From an uncultured Clostridia bacterium (lineage in GTDB: Bacteria > Bacillota > Clostridia > Oscillospirales > CAG-382), in the NCBI GenBank assembly GCA_905235695.1, contig CAJOMW010000001.1, positions 959 to 48,188 on the forward strand: a stretch of DNA of 47,230 nucleotides, in the 5' to 3' direction. Under the pieces are notes generated by a model. It ran no database searches and was not told the DNA's origin. It was given only the letters and a program-made list of their open reading frames with translations. The translations under genes and the position numbers were made by a program. This document shows, piece by piece, positions 1 through 34,441 of this stretch; positions within the stretch are counted from its first letter, which is position 1, and each line of letters starts with the position of its first letter.

Positions 1-2
1 AT

Positions 3-40
3 GAATGACGAATAATTGAATAATACAAAACAAAAAATCC
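3..40. repeat. Degenerate heptamer array (GAATGAC GAATAAT TGAATAAT) followed by ACAAAAC and AAAAAATCC; mirror image of the GGATTTTTT-linker-array arrangement seen elsewhere; cut by the window edge
   Basis: Read directly from the sequence. Three 7-8 nt units sharing GAATRAY lie next to an A-run/ATCC half-hairpin. Confidence 0.4.
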
Positions 41-100
41 TATCTTTCTACAGGACTCAAGTGTCTTGCAAAACTCATTATACCCACAAAAATAGTTGGG

Positions 101-152
101 TGAGGTTATCAACTGCAATACTTCATGTGGAAATTTTTAGCTTTTGCAACAG
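101..152 (-). repeat. Conserved 52-nt box, copy A (reverse orientation relative to copy B at 5663-5715)
   Basis: The reverse complement, CTGTTGCAAAAGCTAAAAATTTCCACATGAAGTATTGCAGTTGATAACCTCA, differs from 5663-5715 by 2 substitutions and 1 single-nt indel. Confidence 0.9.
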
Positions 153-206
153 TCTGACGTTTGCATATTATATAACTATGTAAACCAACTCTGAAATTTA
201 TTTAAT

Positions 207-227
207 AAAAAATCCGAAGGATTTTTT
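207..227. terminator. Perfect 9-bp hairpin AAAAAATCC-GAA-GGATTTTTT with an A-run on one side and a T-run on the other; likely bidirectional intrinsic terminator serving the minus-strand gene 266-955
   Basis: Stem, loop and U-tract are read directly. The hairpin lies 39 nt downstream of the stop codon of the minus-strand CDS. Confidence 0.65.
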
Positions 228-230
228 CCT

Positions 231-265
231 TAACTCCTCACTCCTAACTCCTCACTCCTAACTCA
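231..265. repeat. Tandem heptamer array, 5 units (TAACTCC TCACTCC TAACTCC TCACTCC TAACTCA)
   Basis: Direct reading. The array abuts the stop codon (266-268) of the minus-strand CDS. Its outer 17 nt (247-263, ACTCCTCACTCCTAACT) are identical to 5924-5940. Confidence 0.95.
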
Positions 266-955
266 TCAAACGTCTCCCTCCAAAAACTTCACCGCTCTCT
301 CGACCGAGTCCTTCGCATTGCCCCACGGCTCGCTGTCGTAGCGGTAGTCAAACTTTTTGCAGAACCAGGAGACGTCCTCTTTAAGCGACTGCATATAGGC
401 GCTCTGCACTTTGTCGAGAGCTTCGATAAAGAGGGGGTACGTTTTCTTGTCGAGGCGGACCTTTGCCTTTTCGATAAAGAGCGAGGCGTGCGGCAGGCAG
501 AAATAAGGCTGAGCGGAGAGAAGGTCTCGGAATGAGCGCTCCTTTTCCCAGAGAAGCACGGCGGTCAGCACCATTTTGGAGTATTTTTCGTCGACTCTCT
601 CGCATATATAACAGCTCGAATTGAGCTTCTTCATCTCCGAAGCTGCCTTTTGGCTGTTGTCCTTGCCGAAGACCGACCTTTTGCAAATCGCTACCTTGTC
701 GGAGAGCTCTCCGAGATGGCTCTCGAGCATGAGCGCAAGGCTGAGACGGTTGTTCATTTCGAGCATCTTGTCGTAGTGCCTTCGGCAGAAGCCGAGCTCG
801 TTTGTCTTTATCCGGATGTCCGGCTCCATCATTGACGCACCCATTATGAGATCGCGCTCAGTATCCTCAAGCTCGCGCCTGAGACGGCAGAACGGGCAGC
901 CGTCCTTCTTCTCAAACGCCTGCGTCACGGGTATTGTATATATCTTCTCTTCCAT
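266..955 (-). CDS. Cys-rich conserved hypothetical protein with two tandem CxxC...CxxH modules; resembles clostridial DUF6062-type proteins
   Basis: 229-aa ORF. It carries C20PFC..C57RRH and C115YIC..C153LPH with near-identical spacing (37 and 38 residues). The family name is from memory and was not verified. Confidence 0.7.
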   Translation of the reverse strand: MEEKIYTIPVTQAFEKKDGCPFCRLRRELEDTERDLIMGASMMEPDIRIKTNELGFCRRHYDKMLEMNNRLSLALMLESHLGELSDKVAICKRSVFGKDNSQKAASEMKKLNSSCYICERVDEKYSKMVLTAVLLWEKERSFRDLLSAQPYFCLPHASLFIEKAKVRLDKKTYPLFIEALDKVQSAYMQSLKEDVSWFCKKFDYRYDSEPWGNAKDSVERAVKFLEGDV

Positions 956-2580: not shown

Positions 2581-2657
2581 AATCACTTATCTGTTTAATA
2601 AATATCCGTATTTTATTAAATAAAAGTTTGGTATTTGGTGATATTATTATCTTGCGC

Positions 2658-3122
2658 CTACCGAGGCATATTCATGACGTAATATATTATCCCCCACACG
2701 ACGGATGCGGCGGAGCCGTAGACTATTACGGGGCCGGCGATGGTGAACATCTTTGCGCCGACGCCGGTGACAAAGCCCTCGCTCTTGCTGTCTATCGCAG
2801 GCGAGCAGACGGCGTTTGCAAAGCCGGTTATCGGCACGAGCGTGCCTGCCTTTGCGTATTTTGCTATCTTGTCGTAGACGCCGATACCCGTAAGGAGGCA
2901 GGAAAGAAATATCAGACTTACGGGGATAACGCCCTTTACGTTTTCCTCGTTTACGCCAAGGCTTTTTGCAATGTCTCCGATGCCCTGCCCGATAACGCAT
3001 ATTATTCCGCCGACGATGAACGCAATTACGCAGTCCTTGAGAAGGGTGGAGCGGGGAGCGTGATCGTCTGCGTATTTTCTGAAATCCTTTTTATCCTTCT
3101 CGCTGTATTCTCTCTTATCCAT
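2658..3122 (-). CDS. spoVAC: Stage V sporulation protein AC (SpoVAC/SpoVAEB family membrane protein)
   Basis: 154 aa. The motifs GGIICVIGQG...TLVPITGFANAV...AGPVIVYG and four predicted TM segments are typical of SpoVAC. Confidence 0.85.
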   Translation of the reverse strand: MDKREYSEKDKKDFRKYADDHAPRSTLLKDCVIAFIVGGIICVIGQGIGDIAKSLGVNEENVKGVIPVSLIFLSCLLTGIGVYDKIAKYAKAGTLVPITGFANAVCSPAIDSKSEGFVTGVGAKMFTIAGPVIVYGSAASVVWGIIYYVMNMPR

Positions 3123-3151
3123 AATAAAAATCCTTTCTTTGAGGTGTCAAC

Positions 3152-4561
3152 TTGATATTTGCCAGTTTGATATTTTTGTATCTATTTTTACCCCTAAATC
3201 TGTTAATATACTTCTTTTCAAGGTCGAATACGGCAAAAAATGTCGTTCTGCTCGTGTTTTCCCTTGTCTTTTACGCATGGGGAAGACCGTTCTGGATGCT
3301 GCTCCTTGTCTTTACGGCGCTTCTGGACTGGAACAACGCACGCCATATCGAGAAATACCGAGGAACGCCGAAGGCAAAGCTGTTTCTTGCGCTCTCGATT
3401 ATAGTTGACGTCGGAATATTCGTCGCCTTCAAGTATTCGGGATTTTTTGCGGAGAACATCAATTTCCTGTTCTCATCCGCTTTACCTGTCCCCGAGTTTG
3501 AGCTTCCGATAGGCATATCCTTCTACACCTTCCAGACGCTGACCTACGTCATAGACGTATACCGCGGAGACAGCAAGGCTCAGCCTTTGTTTTACAAGTA
3601 TCTTCTGTATCTCTCCATGTATTTCCAGCTCGTCGCCGGACCTATAGTCCGCTACGGCAATGTCGCAAATGACATAGATGGGCGCAGACCGCGCTTTAAC
3701 TCGATACACGCAGGTCTCCAAAGGTTTATCTGCGGACTTGCAAAGAAGGTTATCATAGCCGACACGGCAGGCGAGCTTGTACGAAAGTACATGGACGCAG
3801 ATCCGTCGCAGCTTCCCGTGCTTGCGGCATGGCTCGGCAGCTTTATGTATATCATTCAGCTCTACTTCGATTTTTCCGGTTACAGCGATATGGCGATAGG
3901 GCTCGGCAGGATATTCGGCTTCAGGTTCCCCGAAAACTTCAACTATCCGTATATATCAAAGTCCGTATCCGAGTTCTGGCGAAGGTGGCACATGACGCTC
4001 GGCGGCTTCTTCAGGGATTACGTTTACATTCCGCTCGGCGGCAACAGAAAGCATGTTTTCTTCAACCTGTTTGTGGTGTGGTTCCTTACCGGCTTCTGGC
4101 ACGGTGCAAGCTGGAACTTTGTAATATGGGGACTGTATAACGGGCTGTTTATTGCGCTTGAGAGGGTATTCAAGGACAAATTTGAAAAGATACCGTCCGC
4201 TTTGCGGCACATATATCTCCTGCTGGTCGTCGATATAGGCTTTGTCTTCTTCTACTTCAAAGATATGGGAAGGGCAGTGGGATATCTCGGGGCGATGTTC
4301 GGCTTCGGAAGAACCTTGGTCGATACGGATCTTGCGGTAACGTTCATGAACAACGTATTCTTTATTATACTTGCGGTCTTGCTGTGCGCCCCGGTGTCAA
4401 AGCTGCTTAAGACCGCATCCGAAAGATTTGAGGCAAAGGGAGAGGCAAGGCTCATTGCGACAGAGACGGTAAAGAACGCACTGCTTCTCGGCATACTCTT
4501 CGTATGCACCGCACTTCTCGCAGGAAACAGCTTCAGTCCGTTCCTGTACTTCCAATTTTAA
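3152..4561 (+). CDS. MBOAT-family membrane O-acyltransferase (AlgI/DltB-like)
   Basis: 469 aa. TTG start with GAGGTG 6 nt upstream. The N-terminus MIFASLIFLYLFLPL and the conserved FWRRWHMTLGGFFRDY histidine motif are present. Confidence 0.9.
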   Translation: MIFASLIFLYLFLPLNLLIYFFSRSNTAKNVVLLVFSLVFYAWGRPFWMLLLVFTALLDWNNARHIEKYRGTPKAKLFLALSIIVDVGIFVAFKYSGFFAENINFLFSSALPVPEFELPIGISFYTFQTLTYVIDVYRGDSKAQPLFYKYLLYLSMYFQLVAGPIVRYGNVANDIDGRRPRFNSIHAGLQRFICGLAKKVIIADTAGELVRKYMDADPSQLPVLAAWLGSFMYIIQLYFDFSGYSDMAIGLGRIFGFRFPENFNYPYISKSVSEFWRRWHMTLGGFFRDYVYIPLGGNRKHVFFNLFVVWFLTGFWHGASWNFVIWGLYNGLFIALERVFKDKFEKIPSALRHIYLLLVVDIGFVFFYFKDMGRAVGYLGAMFGFGRTLVDTDLAVTFMNNVFFIILAVLLCAPVSKLLKTASERFEAKGEARLIATETVKNALLLGILFVCTALLAGNSFSPFLYFQF

Positions 4562-4581
4562 AAGAGAAAGGAAAAAACGAA

Positions 4582-5532
4582 ATGGCAAAAAAACTCGGAG
4601 GGCTTGGCAAAGGCCTTGACGCACTTTTTATAGAGACGGGCAGCGATGAAAAAACGATAGGGAATATTTCTTCGGATATAGCGAAGGTCAGGATATCGGA
4701 CGTTGAGCCGGACAGGCTTCAGCCCCGTAAGAATTTCGACGAGGAATCGCTGAACACCCTTGCCGAATCCATATCGCTTCACGGCGTTCTTCAGCCGATA
4801 GTCGTGAGAAGTGCGGCGAGGGATACGGACGACGAGGAGACAAAAAAGCTGCTCGAAGGAAAGTACAGAATAGTATCGGGCGAGCGCAGGTGGCGCGCCT
4901 CAAAGATAGCAGGACTGACCGAGATACCGGTAGTCATAAAGGAGCTCACCGACAGCGAGGCGGAAGCGATAATGCTCGTCGAAAACCTCCAGAGAGAGGA
5001 TCTGAACCCGGTCGAGACCGCAAGGGGACTGAAAAGGCTCGTCGACGAATACGGACTCACGCACGAAGAGACGTCTAAGATAGTCGGCATTTCACGCCCC
5101 AATCTGACAAATTCACTCCGGCTTCTCTCGCTCCCTCAGAATGTGCTCGATTTTCTCGAAAGCGGCGATATCAGCGCCGGTCATGCAAGAGCGCTTCTGC
5201 CGCTCGAAAATGAGGACAAAATAAATGAGGCACTCGACATAGTGCTCGCAAAGAACTATTCGGTGCGCGATACGGAGAGACTTGTAAAAGGGCTTCTCGG
5301 TCAGAGCGAAAAGGCTCAGGAAAAGAAGACGTTCAAGGACATAGAAAAGCAGATATATCTCGAAAAGCTCGAAGAGAAGATTTCCTCAAAGCTCGGCAGA
5401 AAAGCGGCGATAGTGGGAAACAAGGGCAAAAAGGACGGCGGACGGCTTGAGATAGAGTATTACGGAAGCGAGGATCTCGAGACGCTGCTCAGAGAAATCT
5501 GCGGTTCCGATATTTTCAGCGAAAAAAACTGA
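4582..5532 (+). CDS. parB: ParB/Spo0J-family partition protein
   Basis: The ORF track begins at 4504. The ATG at 4582 gives the canonical MAKKLGGLGKGLDALF start with a purine-rich SD. The GERRWRA box and the HTH LTHEETSKIVGISRPNLTNSLRLL are present. Confidence 0.9.
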   Translation: MAKKLGGLGKGLDALFIETGSDEKTIGNISSDIAKVRISDVEPDRLQPRKNFDEESLNTLAESISLHGVLQPIVVRSAARDTDDEETKKLLEGKYRIVSGERRWRASKIAGLTEIPVVIKELTDSEAEAIMLVENLQREDLNPVETARGLKRLVDEYGLTHEETSKIVGISRPNLTNSLRLLSLPQNVLDFLESGDISAGHARALLPLENEDKINEALDIVLAKNYSVRDTERLVKGLLGQSEKAQEKKTFKDIEKQIYLEKLEEKISSKLGRKAAIVGNKGKKDGGRLEIEYYGSEDLETLLREICGSDIFSEKN

Positions 5533-5550
5533 ATTAGTGAGGATAATAAA

Positions 5551-5585
5551 AGTTAGGAGTGAGGAGTGAGGAGTGAGGAGTTGAT
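5551..5585. repeat. Tandem heptamer array (AGTTAGG AGTGAGG AGTGAGG AGTGAGG AGTTGAT), reverse complement of the TAACTCC/TCACTCC arrays
   Basis: Direct reading. An extra isolated AGTGAGG unit sits at 5536-5542. Confidence 0.95.
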
Positions 5586-5588
5586 GTA

Positions 5589-5609
5589 GATTTTTGCGTT
5601 GCAAAAATC
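5589..5609. other. Perfect 9-bp hairpin GATTTTTGC-GTT-GCAAAAATC
   Basis: Direct reading. There is no U-tract after it on the plus strand. Confidence 0.8.
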
Positions 5610-5662
5610 CGAAAAAATTAGTTATTTATCGCATTTCTTGACGATTCCAAAATTTTTTCAGG

Positions 5663-5715
5663 CTGTTGCAAAAGCAAAAAATTTCCAACATGGAGTATTG
5701 CAGTTGATAACCTCA
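5663..5715 (+). repeat. Conserved 53-nt box, copy B
   Basis: CTGTTGCAAAAGCAAAAAATTTCCAACATGGAGTATTGCAGTTGATAACCTCA matches the reverse complement of 101-152. It lies 53 nt from hairpin 5589-5609, and copy A lies 54 nt from its hairpin. Confidence 0.9.
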
Positions 5716-5736
5716 TTCGAGCGGCACCCCATACGG

Positions 5737-5785
5737 AGCCAACCATTGGCTTCCCCTTGAGGGGAAGCTGTCAGCGTAAGCTGAC
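5737..5785 (+). other. Three consecutive hairpins (AGCCAA-CCA-TTGGCT; TTCCCC-TTGA-GGGGAA; GTCAGC-GTAA-GCTGAC); candidate structured RNA or REP-like module
   Basis: Stems are read directly. The third loop is a GNRA tetraloop. The strand is assumed from the neighbouring genes. Confidence 0.35.
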
Positions 5786-5827
5786 TGATGAGGTGAAACA
5801 ATTAAAAATTGTTAGATTTTTCCCTTA

Positions 5828-5855
5828 ATTGCGAATTGCGCATTGCGAATTGCGC
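5828..5855. repeat. Perfect tandem duplication of the 14-mer ATTGCGAATTGCGC (can also be read as 7/8-nt AATTGCG(C) units)
   Basis: Direct reading. Confidence 0.95.
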
Positions 5856-5859
5856 ATTA

Positions 5860-5880
5860 AAAAAATCCAAAGGATTTTTT
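5860..5880. terminator. Perfect 9-bp hairpin AAAAAATCC-AAA-GGATTTTTT; same module as 207-227 with a different loop
   Basis: Direct reading. A-run and T-run flanks give a bidirectional terminator-like form. Confidence 0.6.
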
Positions 5881-5886
5881 GTACCT

Positions 5887-5942
5887 TAACTCCTCACTCC
5901 TAACTCCTAACTCCTAACTTCTAACTCCTCACTCCTAACTGA
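5887..5942. repeat. Tandem heptamer array, 8 units (TAACTCC TCACTCC TAACTCC TAACTCC TAACTTC TAACTCC TCACTCC TAACTGA)
   Basis: Direct reading. It ends 17 nt before the ATG at 5959. Confidence 0.95.
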
Positions 5943-5958
5943 ATTTTTGGGTGGTATT

Positions 5959-6690
5959 ATGAGCATAAACACGATAGAACTTATAGTATGGTCACTTTTT
6001 GCGGCGATAACGGTTGCGGTGCTGTATGCGTTTTTCATGCAGAAATCCGTGTCGGGTCTTGCTAAAAAGCTGATAGACAGCTCGGCTTTGTCAAAAGACT
6101 GCGCAAAGACGCTGAGCGAACTCGGATACAAGGACGGTATAGCCTCGAAGGTCACCGCATTTTTTGCCGCCGGCGGCTCGTATCTCGCGCGCTGTATAGT
6201 AAAGGTCGGCAGAAACGATAAAAACGATAAAAACACGGGCGAAAGTGATTTGCTCTTTGTAAAAAAAGAGCCGCTGAAGTACTATATCCCCGAAGAAAAA
6301 GTCGACAAAGTATTCAATAAGCATCTGAACGACAAGATGTCGCCTAAATACCTCATCCTGTCCATCGCCGTGCTTCTCATCCTTGCGCTTGTCGCAGGAA
6401 CGGTTATAAATTTCCTCATGTCTACCGCGTCAAACGCATTCAGCGGAATAGGAAACGCCCCCGTCGGCACGGCATCCGAGAGCGATTCACTGCTCGACGA
6501 GCAGGAAAAGCTCACAGAAGAAGAGGAGACAGCAAAGGAAGCGGAAGCCGAAGGCGCAGAAGAATCGGAAGGCGAAAGCGCAGAAAAGCCTGACGAAAAT
6601 ACGGATGAAAATTCGCCCGGCGGCGCACAGGAGACGACCGCAAATGAAGAGACAGGCGACAGCTCCGCAGAAACCGACGCCGCTCAGTAA
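5959..6690 (+). CDS. Hypothetical membrane protein with two TM segments and a long acidic, low-complexity C-terminal tail
   Basis: The ORF track starts at TTG 5947. The ATG at 5959 follows GGGTGG. There are hydrophobic segments near the N-terminus and around residue 140. The tail is rich in E, T and A. Confidence 0.6.
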   Translation: MSINTIELIVWSLFAAITVAVLYAFFMQKSVSGLAKKLIDSSALSKDCAKTLSELGYKDGIASKVTAFFAAGGSYLARCIVKVGRNDKNDKNTGESDLLFVKKEPLKYYIPEEKVDKVFNKHLNDKMSPKYLILSIAVLLILALVAGTVINFLMSTASNAFSGIGNAPVGTASESDSLLDEQEKLTEEEETAKEAEAEGAEESEGESAEKPDENTDENSPGGAQETTANEETGDSSAETDAAQ

Positions 6691-8413: not shown

Positions 8414-8481
8414 AGAATGAAGAGAGAAGAGAGCATAGAAAATGTACAAAAAACAGTGGTTTTTTTTGAGAGATAAGATTG

Positions 8482-8506
8482 AGCGGACGGAAAGCGTCCG
8501 CTTTTG
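8482..8506 (+). terminator. Intrinsic terminator AGCGGACG-GAAAG-CGTCCGCT followed by TTTGT
   Basis: An 8-bp GC-rich stem plus a T-run, 69 nt after the TrmH-family stop. Confidence 0.7.
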
Positions 8507-8558
8507 TATGCTTTTATATGAAAATTTATAATTATTTTATTAAATCCGCCATTTTTTG

Positions 8559-8587
8559 TAGACAAAGCGGATTTTTTATGATATAAT
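8559..8587 (+). promoter_or_regulatory. Sigma-A-type promoter TAGACA-17-TATAAT with extended -10 (TGATATAAT) upstream of the envelope-polysaccharide cluster
   Basis: Hexamers and 17-nt spacing are read directly. It lies 47 nt upstream of the ATG at 8634. Confidence 0.6.
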
Positions 8588-8633
8588 GATATGTGTAAAG
8601 TCATAAATTTACTTCCTGTGGAGGAAACTTTAT

Positions 8634-18024: not shown

Positions 18025-18229
18025 ATAAATTAAAAAATAAAGCGATAAGCATTTGGAGCTATCGACATAGCTTACATATAGCCCCGTTTAGGGCTATAGA
18101 GGCACGACAGCCGCTGCTTTGAACCCCCGTCCCCCTTAAATCCTCAAAAAATCCCACACGGTCAAGAAATATTCCCCAAAAAATTTCATATCATATAAAA
18201 AAGAAATTTTTATATGGGAGAACATACAC

Positions 18230-18907: not shown

Positions 18908-18958
18908 CCTTACAAAATGTATAAAATGTTAAATGTTTATCAAATTTTCTTTTTTCTA

Positions 18959-18987
18959 TTGAAAAATGCCTTGATGCATGATATAAT
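18959..18987 (+). promoter_or_regulatory. Sigma-A-type promoter TTGAAA-17-TATAAT with extended -10 (TGATATAAT) for the V-ATPase operon
   Basis: Hexamers and spacing are read directly. A leader of roughly 140 nt precedes the ATG at 19134. Confidence 0.6.
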
Positions 18988-19133
18988 CAATAAAATTGTA
19001 TGGAGTTTGACGATATTTACAGCAAACGGAAACGTGAATTTTGTATATTATGCAACGCAAAGCTGATTGCTGTTGAAATGATGCGCAAAGTAGGAAAATA
19101 AAGACTATTTTATATGAAAGGAATGACGAAAGT

Positions 19134-34019: not shown

Positions 34020-34055
34020 TTATTAAAATCGCGATATCAGAACGATACCGCGATT

Positions 34056-34084
34056 ATTATACTACTAAATCATAAAAAATTCAA
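34056..34084 (-). promoter_or_regulatory. Sigma-A-type promoter on the minus strand: TTGAAT-17-TATAAT for nifS-ttcA
   Basis: Reverse-complement reading with 17-nt spacing. A 7-bp hairpin AATCGCG...CGCGATT lies in the short 5' UTR. Confidence 0.55.
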
Positions 34085-34377
34085 TACCCATCGTCAGCAT
34101 GGCTTAATGTCTTTAAGCTCGTACGGCGTTGACTGATAGAGAAAATAGTTGGTCCGGTTTGAAAGCACCGGAGAACCTGTCAAAAAATTTACGCACGAGA
34201 AAGCCGCACATGCTTCTACACATACACATGCGCGCGTCCTGCATTTTAGAATATGATGCGTTAAATTTCTTCACTTCGTGCTCCGACCTTTTGAAAGCCT
34301 ATTAAATATATATGTTATATTGGTATTATATTAACACATATATTCCGATTTGTCAAGAGCTTTTTTTGCGGATTCCC

Positions 34378-34405
34378 TTGACATATCTCATTTTACTGTT
34401 ATAAT
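34378..34405 (+). promoter_or_regulatory. Sigma-A-type promoter TTGACA-16-TATAAT with extended -10 (TGTTATAAT) for the GH2-GH78 pair
   Basis: Read directly. It lies 37 nt upstream of the ATG at 34442. Confidence 0.65.
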
Positions 34406-34441
34406 TATTTTGTGAGAATATTTTCCGGAGGAACCTCTTAT

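Follow-up and report, generated by a model that had tools for sequence, protein, structure and literature searches.

A 47,230-nt stretch of DNA from an uncultured Clostridia bacterium (contig CAJOMW010000001.1; hereafter the window) carries, in the gap between parB and the gene that follows it, a non-coding insert of about 400 bp (5536–5940) which folds into one long hairpin. The stem of this hairpin consists of tandem 7-base AGGAGT(G/T) repeats, here written AGGAGTK, which pair over about 40 bp. The insert is a discrete, composite and lineage-specific insertion devoid of open reading frames (ORFs), and hairpins with stems of heptamer arrays proved to be a broad and so far unnamed design in Clostridia-type DNA and in many phage contigs. 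The overall reading, that this is an array-framed mosaic insert belonging to that class, that its arrays turn over by whole units, that such units may spread and that the insert may act as an intercistronic hairpin, is given an even chance of being correct.

The insert at the parB junction

The original prediction, made from the letters of the window, had described the ends of the insert as inverted copies of one another. A repeat search and direct reading both bore this out: the 17-mer AGTTAGGAGTGAGGAGT at 5551–5567 is the exact reverse complement of 5924–5940, and the complementarity does run on through both arrays (42-nt arms 88%, 32-nt arms 91%). The 17-mer of 5551–5567 also matches 5889–5905 and 233–249. 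Allowing up to one mismatch, AGGAGTKAGGAGT occurs 13 times in the window, always within arrays (233–266, 5555–5581 and 5889–5936), against a shuffle expectation of 0.09, and Tandem Repeats Finder (TRF) returned AGGAGTK arrays of period 7 with 4.4, 7.7 and 5.1 copies, all of them intergenic. The left array (5536–5582) is the 5' arm of the hairpin and holds TGA or TAG stops in all three frames; it is the shorter of the two, with about 5 units against about 8 on the right. It starts 3 nt after the parB stop codon (TGA, 5530–5532), the corresponding distance for the third, solo array being 0 nt after the DUF6062 stop. The whole segment folds at -163.7 kcal/mol, compared with -90.4 +/- 5.2 for shuffled sequences (z = -14.2). 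The interior had been said to hold no ORF of at least 60 aa, and the largest found was indeed one of 53 aa (5599–5760), two antisense ORFs merely clipping the ends of the element. Two perfect 9-bp hairpins, a conserved box, a three-hairpin module, an AT hairpin and a duplicated 14-mer had been listed for the interior and were all recovered; these features are confirmed as real, lie where they had been placed and are far beyond chance.

In six syntenic relatives (L003, L004, L120, L122, L123 and L125; ParB 63–74% identical) the gap between parB and the next gene measures 14–42 nt, versus 426 nt in the window, and no AGGAGTK array was found in the approximately 13 kb of these six loci. They have in common the gene order DUF6062, OGG, x, SpoVAC, MBOAT, ParB, membrane protein, MORN, SpoU, except that no OGG was called in L125 and that MORN was flagged on the matching gene in four of the six; the gene downstream of parB is an ortholog (BLASTP identities of 44% and 35%, with the N-termini aligned). 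Empty sites at this junction, as the idea of an insertion had led one to look for, were therefore present in every relative examined. The nearest ParB homologs outside the species are at most 74% identical and, because all of the empty sites lie in such distant relatives, they cannot separate a single insertion from stepwise accretion.

Within the species the insert is present in all four assemblies (the window, L001/L002, L293 and L294), with no presence/absence polymorphism. L001, L293 and L294 are 98.4–99.9% identical to the window (parB alone 98.4% in L293 and about 99% in L294), and L001 differs by 8 single-nucleotide polymorphisms in 5.7 kb, none of them inside the element. The 304-nt interior (5583–5886) is identical wherever it is covered, that is in the window, L001 and L294. 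The differences between strains concern the number of array units and the G/T position within them and, besides those, the stop codon and an A-run. Read by its G/T position, the left array of the window is T,G,G,G; that of L294, shorter by one unit, is T,T,G and that of L293 G,T,G..., and one such position of the array at 231–268 differs in L293. Since the left array and that at 231–268 both vary between strains, the arrays evolve through gain, loss and reshuffling of whole units, the interior being fixed. In L294, a 1-nt deletion in the A-run before the parB stop (L294 2130–2180, equivalent to window 5520–5570) shifts the frame, and the ParB protein acquires 10 extra residues and ends at a TAG inside the array (326 aa versus 316 aa), which illustrates the all-frame stops of the array. 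Short-read contigs of the species (L001, L002, L293 and L294 all have ends at or near arrays) break inside or beside the arrays, at window positions 177 and 5900, 47 nt past the parB stop, and at 5919, the ends of three contigs falling inside arrays. Because inverted arrays break assemblies, heptamer-array elements will be under-represented in metagenome-assembled genomes.

The 9-nt sequence AACTGAATT occurs on either side of the insert. It had been described as a direct repeat whose right copy overlaps the array and whose left copy lies 15 nt outside the inverted ends. Its presence at both sites and the overlap stood, and the distance did not: a degenerate array unit, AGTGAGG, starts at 5536, the next base after the left copy, so that this copy abuts the element. 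Repeats of 9 nt have a background rate of 1.4e-5 per position/distance pair; after allowing for registers the nominal P is about 0.001–0.004, in a comparison made post hoc and with 4 nt of the repeat overlapping the array. The repeat is a suggestive hint of a target duplication. In strain L293 the left copy reads AACTAAATT, the parB stop there being TAA. Taking out one copy together with the insert leaves, as had been proposed, a junction of 16 nt that includes a Shine-Dalgarno sequence, and the relatives are alike.

Heptamer arrays in viral contigs and the question of mobility

The viral contigs of IMG/VR were scanned for three consecutive AGGAGTK units. This pattern was found in 107 stretches, the loci ranging from 24 to 66% GC. 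Eighty percent of the non-redundant arrays (145/182) are intergenic, about 10% of that DNA being non-coding according to the same ORF caller, and 52 of the 145 begin no more than 20 nt after a same-strand stop codon. Convergent pairs, in which AGGAGTK is followed by its complement, number 41 and enclose interiors of 9–167 nt, the 308 nt of the window being the longest; the six divergent pairs are every one at least 267 nt apart. Among non-redundant pairs lying within 400 nt of one another, 29 are convergent versus none divergent. The class examples that were folded formed long hairpins whose stems are arrays and which often enclose one or two small hairpins, and the L009 family has the layout of the window (array, hairpin, AT-rich spacer, hairpin, array). 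The rules shown by the class are that its arrays are intergenic, that they usually lie a few bases past the upstream stop codon and that the purine-rich, stop-containing arm always comes first, on either strand. In a phage late operon of 65% G+C (L082, IMG/VR 3300037843_000663; terminase, portal, S49 protease, capsid, head completion) most of the gaps between genes contain a heptamer-array hairpin, with tiny loops, all different, and with the unit variants AGGAGTT, AGGAGAT, AGGAGGT and AGGAGAC. Since these hairpins occupy most gaps of a late operon, they are compatible with co-transcription.

Composition-matched control heptamers (loci L182–L290) were also present as arrays of at least three units in IMG/VR, GATGAGK in 70 stretches and AGTGGAK in 39, versus the 107 of AGGAGTK, and 59 arrays of other units were counted in the same 946 kb as 89 AGGAGTK arrays. 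Because control heptamers are frequent as arrays too, a sequence-specific Shine-Dalgarno function of AGGAGTK is unsupported. AGGAGTK differed clearly only in its higher tendency to pair: 29 pairs among 174 arrays versus 3/90 and 3/60 for the control heptamers. The purine-rich arm comes first in the pairs of all three heptamers, and this polarity seems to be general to heptamer-array hairpins. The array sequence itself was not found in the literature searched.

Several phage contigs carry array-bounded units in differing surroundings. Over 167 nt the unit of L062, which comprises the arrays and the 80-nt interior of the L009 family, matches the L009 element at 85% identity, versus an alignment of about 50% in the flanks, the level of unrelated sequence. 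L008 has the unit and one flank in common with the L009 family, but on its other side the gene is a different one; the L073/L085 family comprises several copies whose flanks differ, and L075/L084 differ from the L009 phage contigs by one unit. No target duplications above background emerged from a systematic test of 41 pairs, and none were seen in the L009-type or L073/L085 families. Mobility of array-bounded units is therefore plausible at the level of the class, and for the window element it is unproven.

The original prediction had taken the 17-mer for the specific terminus of a mobile element. This did not hold: the 17-mer is cut from a generic array of tandem heptamers which also occurs solo, in more than 100 unrelated viral stretches whose interiors are unrelated too, and which varies between strains in the number and type of its units. 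A third copy had been reported near the start of the window; a matching array does exist near 231–268, and it consists of an array and a hairpin past a stop codon and is no element end. The search for further copies covered 57 kb of the species (the 47-kb window and 10 kb beyond it) as well as viral, genome and metagenome collections, and revealed no second whole element, box or interior, BLAST of the segment matching sub-modules only. The box and the module of array plus hairpin 2 are each duplicated within the window; the whole element occurs there once. Nor did any of the 41 window ORFs contain a transposase or integrase domain.

With target duplications missing from the class, the route by which array-bounded units would spread as whole units, leaving no regular target duplication behind, may be recombinational or of a hairpin/single-strand kind and not that of a classical cut-and-paste transposase. 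The large interior of the window element would then have grown by the nested gain of further modules.

Interior modules and genomic setting

The features of the insert and of its surroundings are collected in Table 1.

Table 1. Coordinates of the heptamer arrays, interior modules, flanking repeats and adjoining genes in the window
Feature	Position	Strand	Remarks
Solo third AGGAGTK array	231..268	-	begins where the DUF6062 gene (266-955, minus) ends in TGA-TGA
Hairpin beside third array	207..227		AAAAAATCC-GAA-GGATTTTTT; homologous to hairpin 2 (95%)
Box copy 1	98..157	-	order and orientation to its array as box copy 2 to the left array
parB	4582..5532	+	316 aa; Pfam ParB_N, HTH_ParB, ParB_C; start 26 codons inside ORF 4504-5532
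Direct repeat, left copy	5527..5535		AACTGAATT; last parB codon, stop codon, ATT
Left heptamer array	5536..5582	+	AGTGAGG, ATAATAA (degenerate), AGTTAGG, AGTGAGG x3, AGTT
Hairpin 1	5589..5609		GATTTTTGC-GTT-GCAAAAATC; perfect 9-bp stem, -8.2 kcal/mol, no U-tract after
Box copy 2	5658..5715	+	58 nt; imperfect hairpin TCAGRCTGTTGCAA...TTGCAGTTGA
Three-hairpin module	5710..5794	+	closed by ACCTCAT/ATGAGGT; fold z = -5.0
AT hairpin	5797..5813		AACAATT-AAA-AATTGTT
AATTGCG heptamer array	5827..5858	+	4.6 units = 14-mer ATTGCGAATTGCGC x2.2, 100% matches (TRF)
Hairpin 2	5860..5880		AAAAAATCC-AAA-GGATTTTTT; weak, -6.5 to -7.4 kcal/mol
Right heptamer array	5884..5940	-	about 8 AGGAGTK units on the minus strand; 3' arm of the long hairpin
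Direct repeat, right copy	5937..5945		AACTGAATT; first 4 nt double as array end
Downstream membrane-protein gene	5959..6690	+	243 aa; Shine-Dalgarno GGGTGG at 5950-5955

The interior was shown to be a mosaic of smaller palindromic modules with separate distributions. The two box copies (5658–5715 and, on the minus strand, 157–98) are identical in 54 of 61 aligned columns (89%), and the cassette has the same layout in both loci: array, hairpin, about 50 nt, box. The hairpin and spacer between array and box are unrelated in the two loci, hairpin 1 matching the hairpin at 207–227 in only 7 of 21 positions; that hairpin corresponds instead to hairpin 2, which together with the start of the right array (5860–5919) is identical in 55 of 60 positions (92%) to 207–263. 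In both of these homologous hairpins the T-run belongs to the stem itself. The two loci have them on opposite sides of the box, which means that the modules assort independently. A 19-mer of the box, searched for as an exact match, gave chance matches only in the viral, genome and metagenome collections, those in the genome and metagenome scans being in unrelated phyla. The box was considered as a parS site (TTTCCACATGAAG) and rejected, with just 10 of 16 consensus positions and, by eye, an extra base in copy 2; sigma-54 and sporulation-sigma promoters were dismissed because the spacing, also judged by eye, is unsuitable. The 5.3-kb DUF6062-ParB block is bracketed by the inverted cassettes (98–265, minus; 5536–5715, plus), each lying downstream of an outward-reading gene. 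These may be two similar 3' cassettes or a bracket able to mediate inversion or recombination; because the gene order agrees with that of the relatives, no inversion of the block has become fixed.

The segment 5748–5799 is a piece, in rearranged form, of a palindromic repeat family that is widespread (GGCTTCCCC..GGGGAAGCTGTCA..TGACTGATGAGG) and in BLAST shows 83–87% identity to six faecal 'Bacteriophage sp.' records. The pattern GGGGAAGCTGTC-N6-22-TGACTGATGAGG of this family occurs in 51 IMG/VR stretches (loci L127–L130 and L131–L181) as imperfect palindromes of about 130–170 nt, often straight after stop codons. Its layout is GGCTTCCCC-loop-GGGGAAGC, TGTCAnn-loop-nnTGAC, TGATGAGG and a variable stretch, followed by CCTCATCC, a GGCC hairpin and CCTTCCCC-loop-GGGGAAGG. 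The family corresponds to no Rfam family and was not found to co-occur with AGGAGTK arrays. A hammerhead ribozyme was considered at 5784–5799, where CTGATGAG is followed by GAAAC, and was rejected: there is no stem II between CUGAUGA and GAAA and no Rfam match, and the motif is half of a palindrome, CTGATGAGG/CCTCATCAG, of the wider repeat family. The AATTGCG array with its 4-nt TTAA lead-in (5823–5858) is 89–94% identical by BLAST to heptamer arrays on Nostoc and Trichormus plasmids; the matches comprise 17 Nostoc plasmid records and others from Trichormus, Calothrix and Halotia. Presumably it is through convergence that the window and an unrelated phylum, the cyanobacteria, have this unit in common.

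Searches for known signals and RNAs returned little. No promoter-like site was called in 5400–6100. The hypothesis of a Rho-independent terminator was likewise set aside, with no site called in that region and hairpins having just 2 G-C pairs. With Rfam 15 there was no match in the window at the gathering score and, at E<=10, the best was a sub-threshold Cyano-1 (202–247, minus strand; 20 bits, the gathering score being 41). This cyanobacterial motif has as its consensus GUGAGGAGU followed by a hairpin, which looks like one array unit with its adjoining hairpin. ARAGORN found no tRNA or tmRNA. The other long gaps of the window (8414–8633, 18025–18229, 18908–19109 and 34020–34411) contain ordinary promoter/terminator sequence and no arrays.

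The window represents ordinary chromosome sequence from a Clostridia-type bacterium, with genes for DUF6062, OGG, SpoVAC, MBOAT, ParB, a membrane protein, MORN, SpoU, MurJ, polysaccharide genes, a V-type ATPase operon and HydE/F/G. The start of ParB given in Table 1 is that of a 316-aa homolog (P0001) which is 100% identical, and the gene calls on L001 agree. No ParA/Soj gene adjoins parB. In the window species as in the six relatives its neighbours are the MBOAT acyltransferase on one side and, on the other, the small membrane protein with MORN and SpoU, SpoVA genes being close by. The gene encodes an orphan paralog of ParB/Noc type, and its conserved neighbourhood is possibly sporulation-related. 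The longest ORF at 2628–3155 (plus strand, 175 aa, no Pfam match) is probably spurious; on the minus strand 2658–3122 encodes a 154-aa SpoVAC/SpoVAEB homolog, called on L001 and in all relatives. Comparison with L003 identified window 1–15 as the tail of a Rex-like gene, and 16–265 is for this reason a complete convergent spacer. In L003 the spacer between Rex and DUF6062 (1483–1747, 265 nt) holds five G+C-rich hairpins unrelated to the window modules, and in the other relatives it measures 31–88 nt; it seems that the hairpin repeats gathered in this spacer differ from one lineage to another.

Origin, possible function and known systems

In the parB transcript the two arrays would pair into an RNA stem of about 40 bp, uncoupling parB from the downstream cistron, and the left array would stop translation in every frame directly after parB. 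Such an intercistronic hairpin may act in processing or in 3'-end stabilisation, as has been proposed for the short tandemly repeated repetitive (STRR) sequences of cyanobacteria and for REP elements. Given the weakness of the small hairpins and the absence of any called promoter or terminator consensus within the element, the downstream gene is most likely expressed by read-through. Several points weigh against the overall reading. The function of the hairpin in the parB transcript is one that we infer, as is every functional step leading to it; the small hairpins are weak (-6 to -8 kcal/mol) and 5400–6100 yielded neither promoter- nor terminator-like sites. The evidence on the class was drawn from viral contigs and not from this genome, and the AGGAGTK sequence itself may be without special function. 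A genome-wide family of whole-element copies is possible, only 57 kb of the species having been covered by the copy search. Finally, a 9-nt direct repeat flush with both ends better fits an insertion of the transposase type.

This last point leads to the classical MITE (miniature inverted-repeat transposable element), in which a single insertion, cut-and-paste or copy-in, with array terminal inverted repeats, served in trans by a DDE transposase encoded elsewhere, would have generated AACTGAATT as a 9-bp target-site duplication. Much about the insert suits such an origin: the long inverted ends, the empty sites in six relatives, the size of the element and its absence of ORFs, a direct repeat that abuts both ends against a background of 1.4e-5 per register, the 16-nt Shine-Dalgarno junction, as in the relatives, left upon excision of one repeat and the insert, and the presence of an array-bounded unit at unrelated loci in phage contigs. 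The ends, however, are generic, hypervariable, strain-variable and unequal (about 5 versus 8 units), which is not how a transposase binding site behaves; the 57 kb and the collections yielded no further copy of the element, box or interior, and the 41 ORFs no transposase; the other 40 array pairs and the multi-copy families have no flanking direct repeat above background, and the interior modules are independently distributed. We regard a classical MITE as unlikely. A purely local origin is quite improbable as well. Here a Shine-Dalgarno/stop heptamer would have expanded by slippage, become palindromic and accreted hairpins, with nothing having moved as a unit. Heptamer arrays of arbitrary sequence are common, and polymerase slippage is their accepted explanation (Mrazek 2007, as summarised in PMC4679880 and PMC4692102); unit number varies between strains and the arms are unequal in length, the array hairpins of L082 are separate for each gap and differ in their tiny loops, and solo arrays are often found immediately past a stop codon and ahead of the next start codon. 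Slippage alone, though, does not produce an inverted arm, nor does it account for an array-plus-hairpin unit (92%) and a box (89%) each duplicated 5.3 kb apart, for the whole unit that the unrelated loci L062 and L009 have in common, or for the 9-nt flanking repeat.

The repeated box could alternatively mark a small-RNA locus, being the 5' domain of sibling RNAs of about 125 nt (160->30, minus strand) and about 220 nt (5660–5885, plus strand), with the arrays and hairpins as 3' ends or insulators of the neighbouring genes. The two copies do follow an array and a hairpin in the same order, and box copy 1 is preceded, about 10 nt upstream, by the end of a sigma-70-like site on the minus strand (195->167, 10 of 12 matches). 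The fold is good in both regions (z = -3.5 and -4.8), each of which closes with a hairpin beside a T-run, and in both copies downstream sequence pairs with the 3' end of the box, leaving a variable insert in between. Against this, box copy 2 has no called promoter-like site upstream of it, there was no Rfam match, the sequences downstream of the two boxes are unrelated, and viral, genome and metagenome collections did not yield the exact 19-mer of the box, which leaves the proposal without covariation support. The minus strand, moreover, folds about as well as the plus strand, as expected of a DNA palindrome, and a small-RNA locus is accordingly rated as highly improbable.

A more specific form of the preferred reading, an array-framed mosaic insert belonging to a wider class, can be put forward tentatively and with more doubt than confidence. 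AGGAGTK-array hairpins might constitute a distinct, undescribed, non-autonomous mobile family of Firmicutes and phages, copied as array-bounded units that land just after stop codons and leave no regular target duplication. They would be driven by a hairpin- or single-strand-specific enzyme or by template switching at the replication fork, and be tolerated or exploited by their hosts as frame-independent stops and intercistronic hairpins, the window element being a large member with acquired modules.

The window element alone is one more intergenic mosaic repeat without a demonstrated phenotype. What is new lies at the level of the class: the after-stop position, the polarity, the whole-unit turnover and the dispersal of units, at least sometimes with their interior. 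These rules are concrete enough for testing and were seen in a setting unrelated to the cyanobacteria. Heptamer-array hairpins can also alter operon coupling, parB and its partner being 426 nt apart versus 14–42 nt in the relatives.

MITEs such as Correia and RUP have defined ends that match those of a parent insertion sequence, produce a regular target duplication and exist as many near-identical copies; for the insert, neither matching parent ends, nor a regular duplication, nor near-identical copies are shown here. It does possess inverted ends and an empty site; no further whole copies appeared in the 57 kb, and no parent transposase in the window. In pneumococcal BOX elements, which are modular, the middle module is repeated in tandem. 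Both they and MITEs resemble the insert in being small and non-coding, with inverted ends and a location inside operons. Small dispersed repeats (SDR) within the heptamer repeats of Nostoc, reportedly described by Elhai et al. in 2008 as very small mobile hairpins, are a lead only.

The REP, BIME and REPIN sequences of Enterobacteria and Pseudomonas (PMC3116915) are, like the insert, intergenic, ORF-less mosaics of palindromes found after stop codons inside operons. REPIN doublets are non-autonomous and are thought to be moved by a hairpin-specific enzyme without classical target duplications (PMC3116915). The insert shares with REP/BIME an intergenic mosaic of imperfect palindromes with modules that assort independently; its arms, in contrast, are tandem heptamer arrays and not a fixed palindrome of 20–40 nt. 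No RAYT-type gene was present among the window ORFs, and no high-copy family emerged in the 57 kb of this genome.

Tandem heptamer repeats were reported decades ago in cyanobacteria and are over-represented in many bacterial genomes, and their origin and function remain unexplained (PMC4692102, PMC4679880, PMC2670836). They include heptanucleotide long simple-sequence repeats (Mrazek 2007), the TAACTGA repeats of the Beggiatoaceae (PMC4679880) and the four-heptamer elements of Geobacter (PMC2700814). Like the insert, heptanucleotide simple-sequence repeats show an intergenic over-representation of 7-nt units, often by start codons, with copy-number change through slippage and a sporadic occurrence across the phylogeny. 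They are described as direct repeats only, whereas a third of the arrays of the present class are paired as inverted hairpin arms enclosing modules; MacGregor listed 169 direct heptamer sets versus one indirect set.

The closest precedent is provided by the heptamer hairpins of the cyanobacterial STRR sequences. STRR repeats of 7 bp form hairpins between hupS and hupL, for which a role in transcript stability or translational coupling was suggested (PMC2670836). Like the insert, they are intergenic and composed of 7-bp tandem units, with inverted arrays able to fold between co-transcribed genes or near the 3' end of a gene. The insert has the traits of an STRR, namely at least three tandem intergenic 7-nt units, variation in unit number between strains and inverted, hairpin-forming arrays between co-directional genes. 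The strict polarity of its class, with the purine arm first, and the position after a stop codon were not found described for STRR sequences in the literature looked at. The insert also differs in coming from another phylum, in its unit AGGAGTK, which combines a Shine-Dalgarno-like core with a stop, and in its 300-nt mosaic interior.

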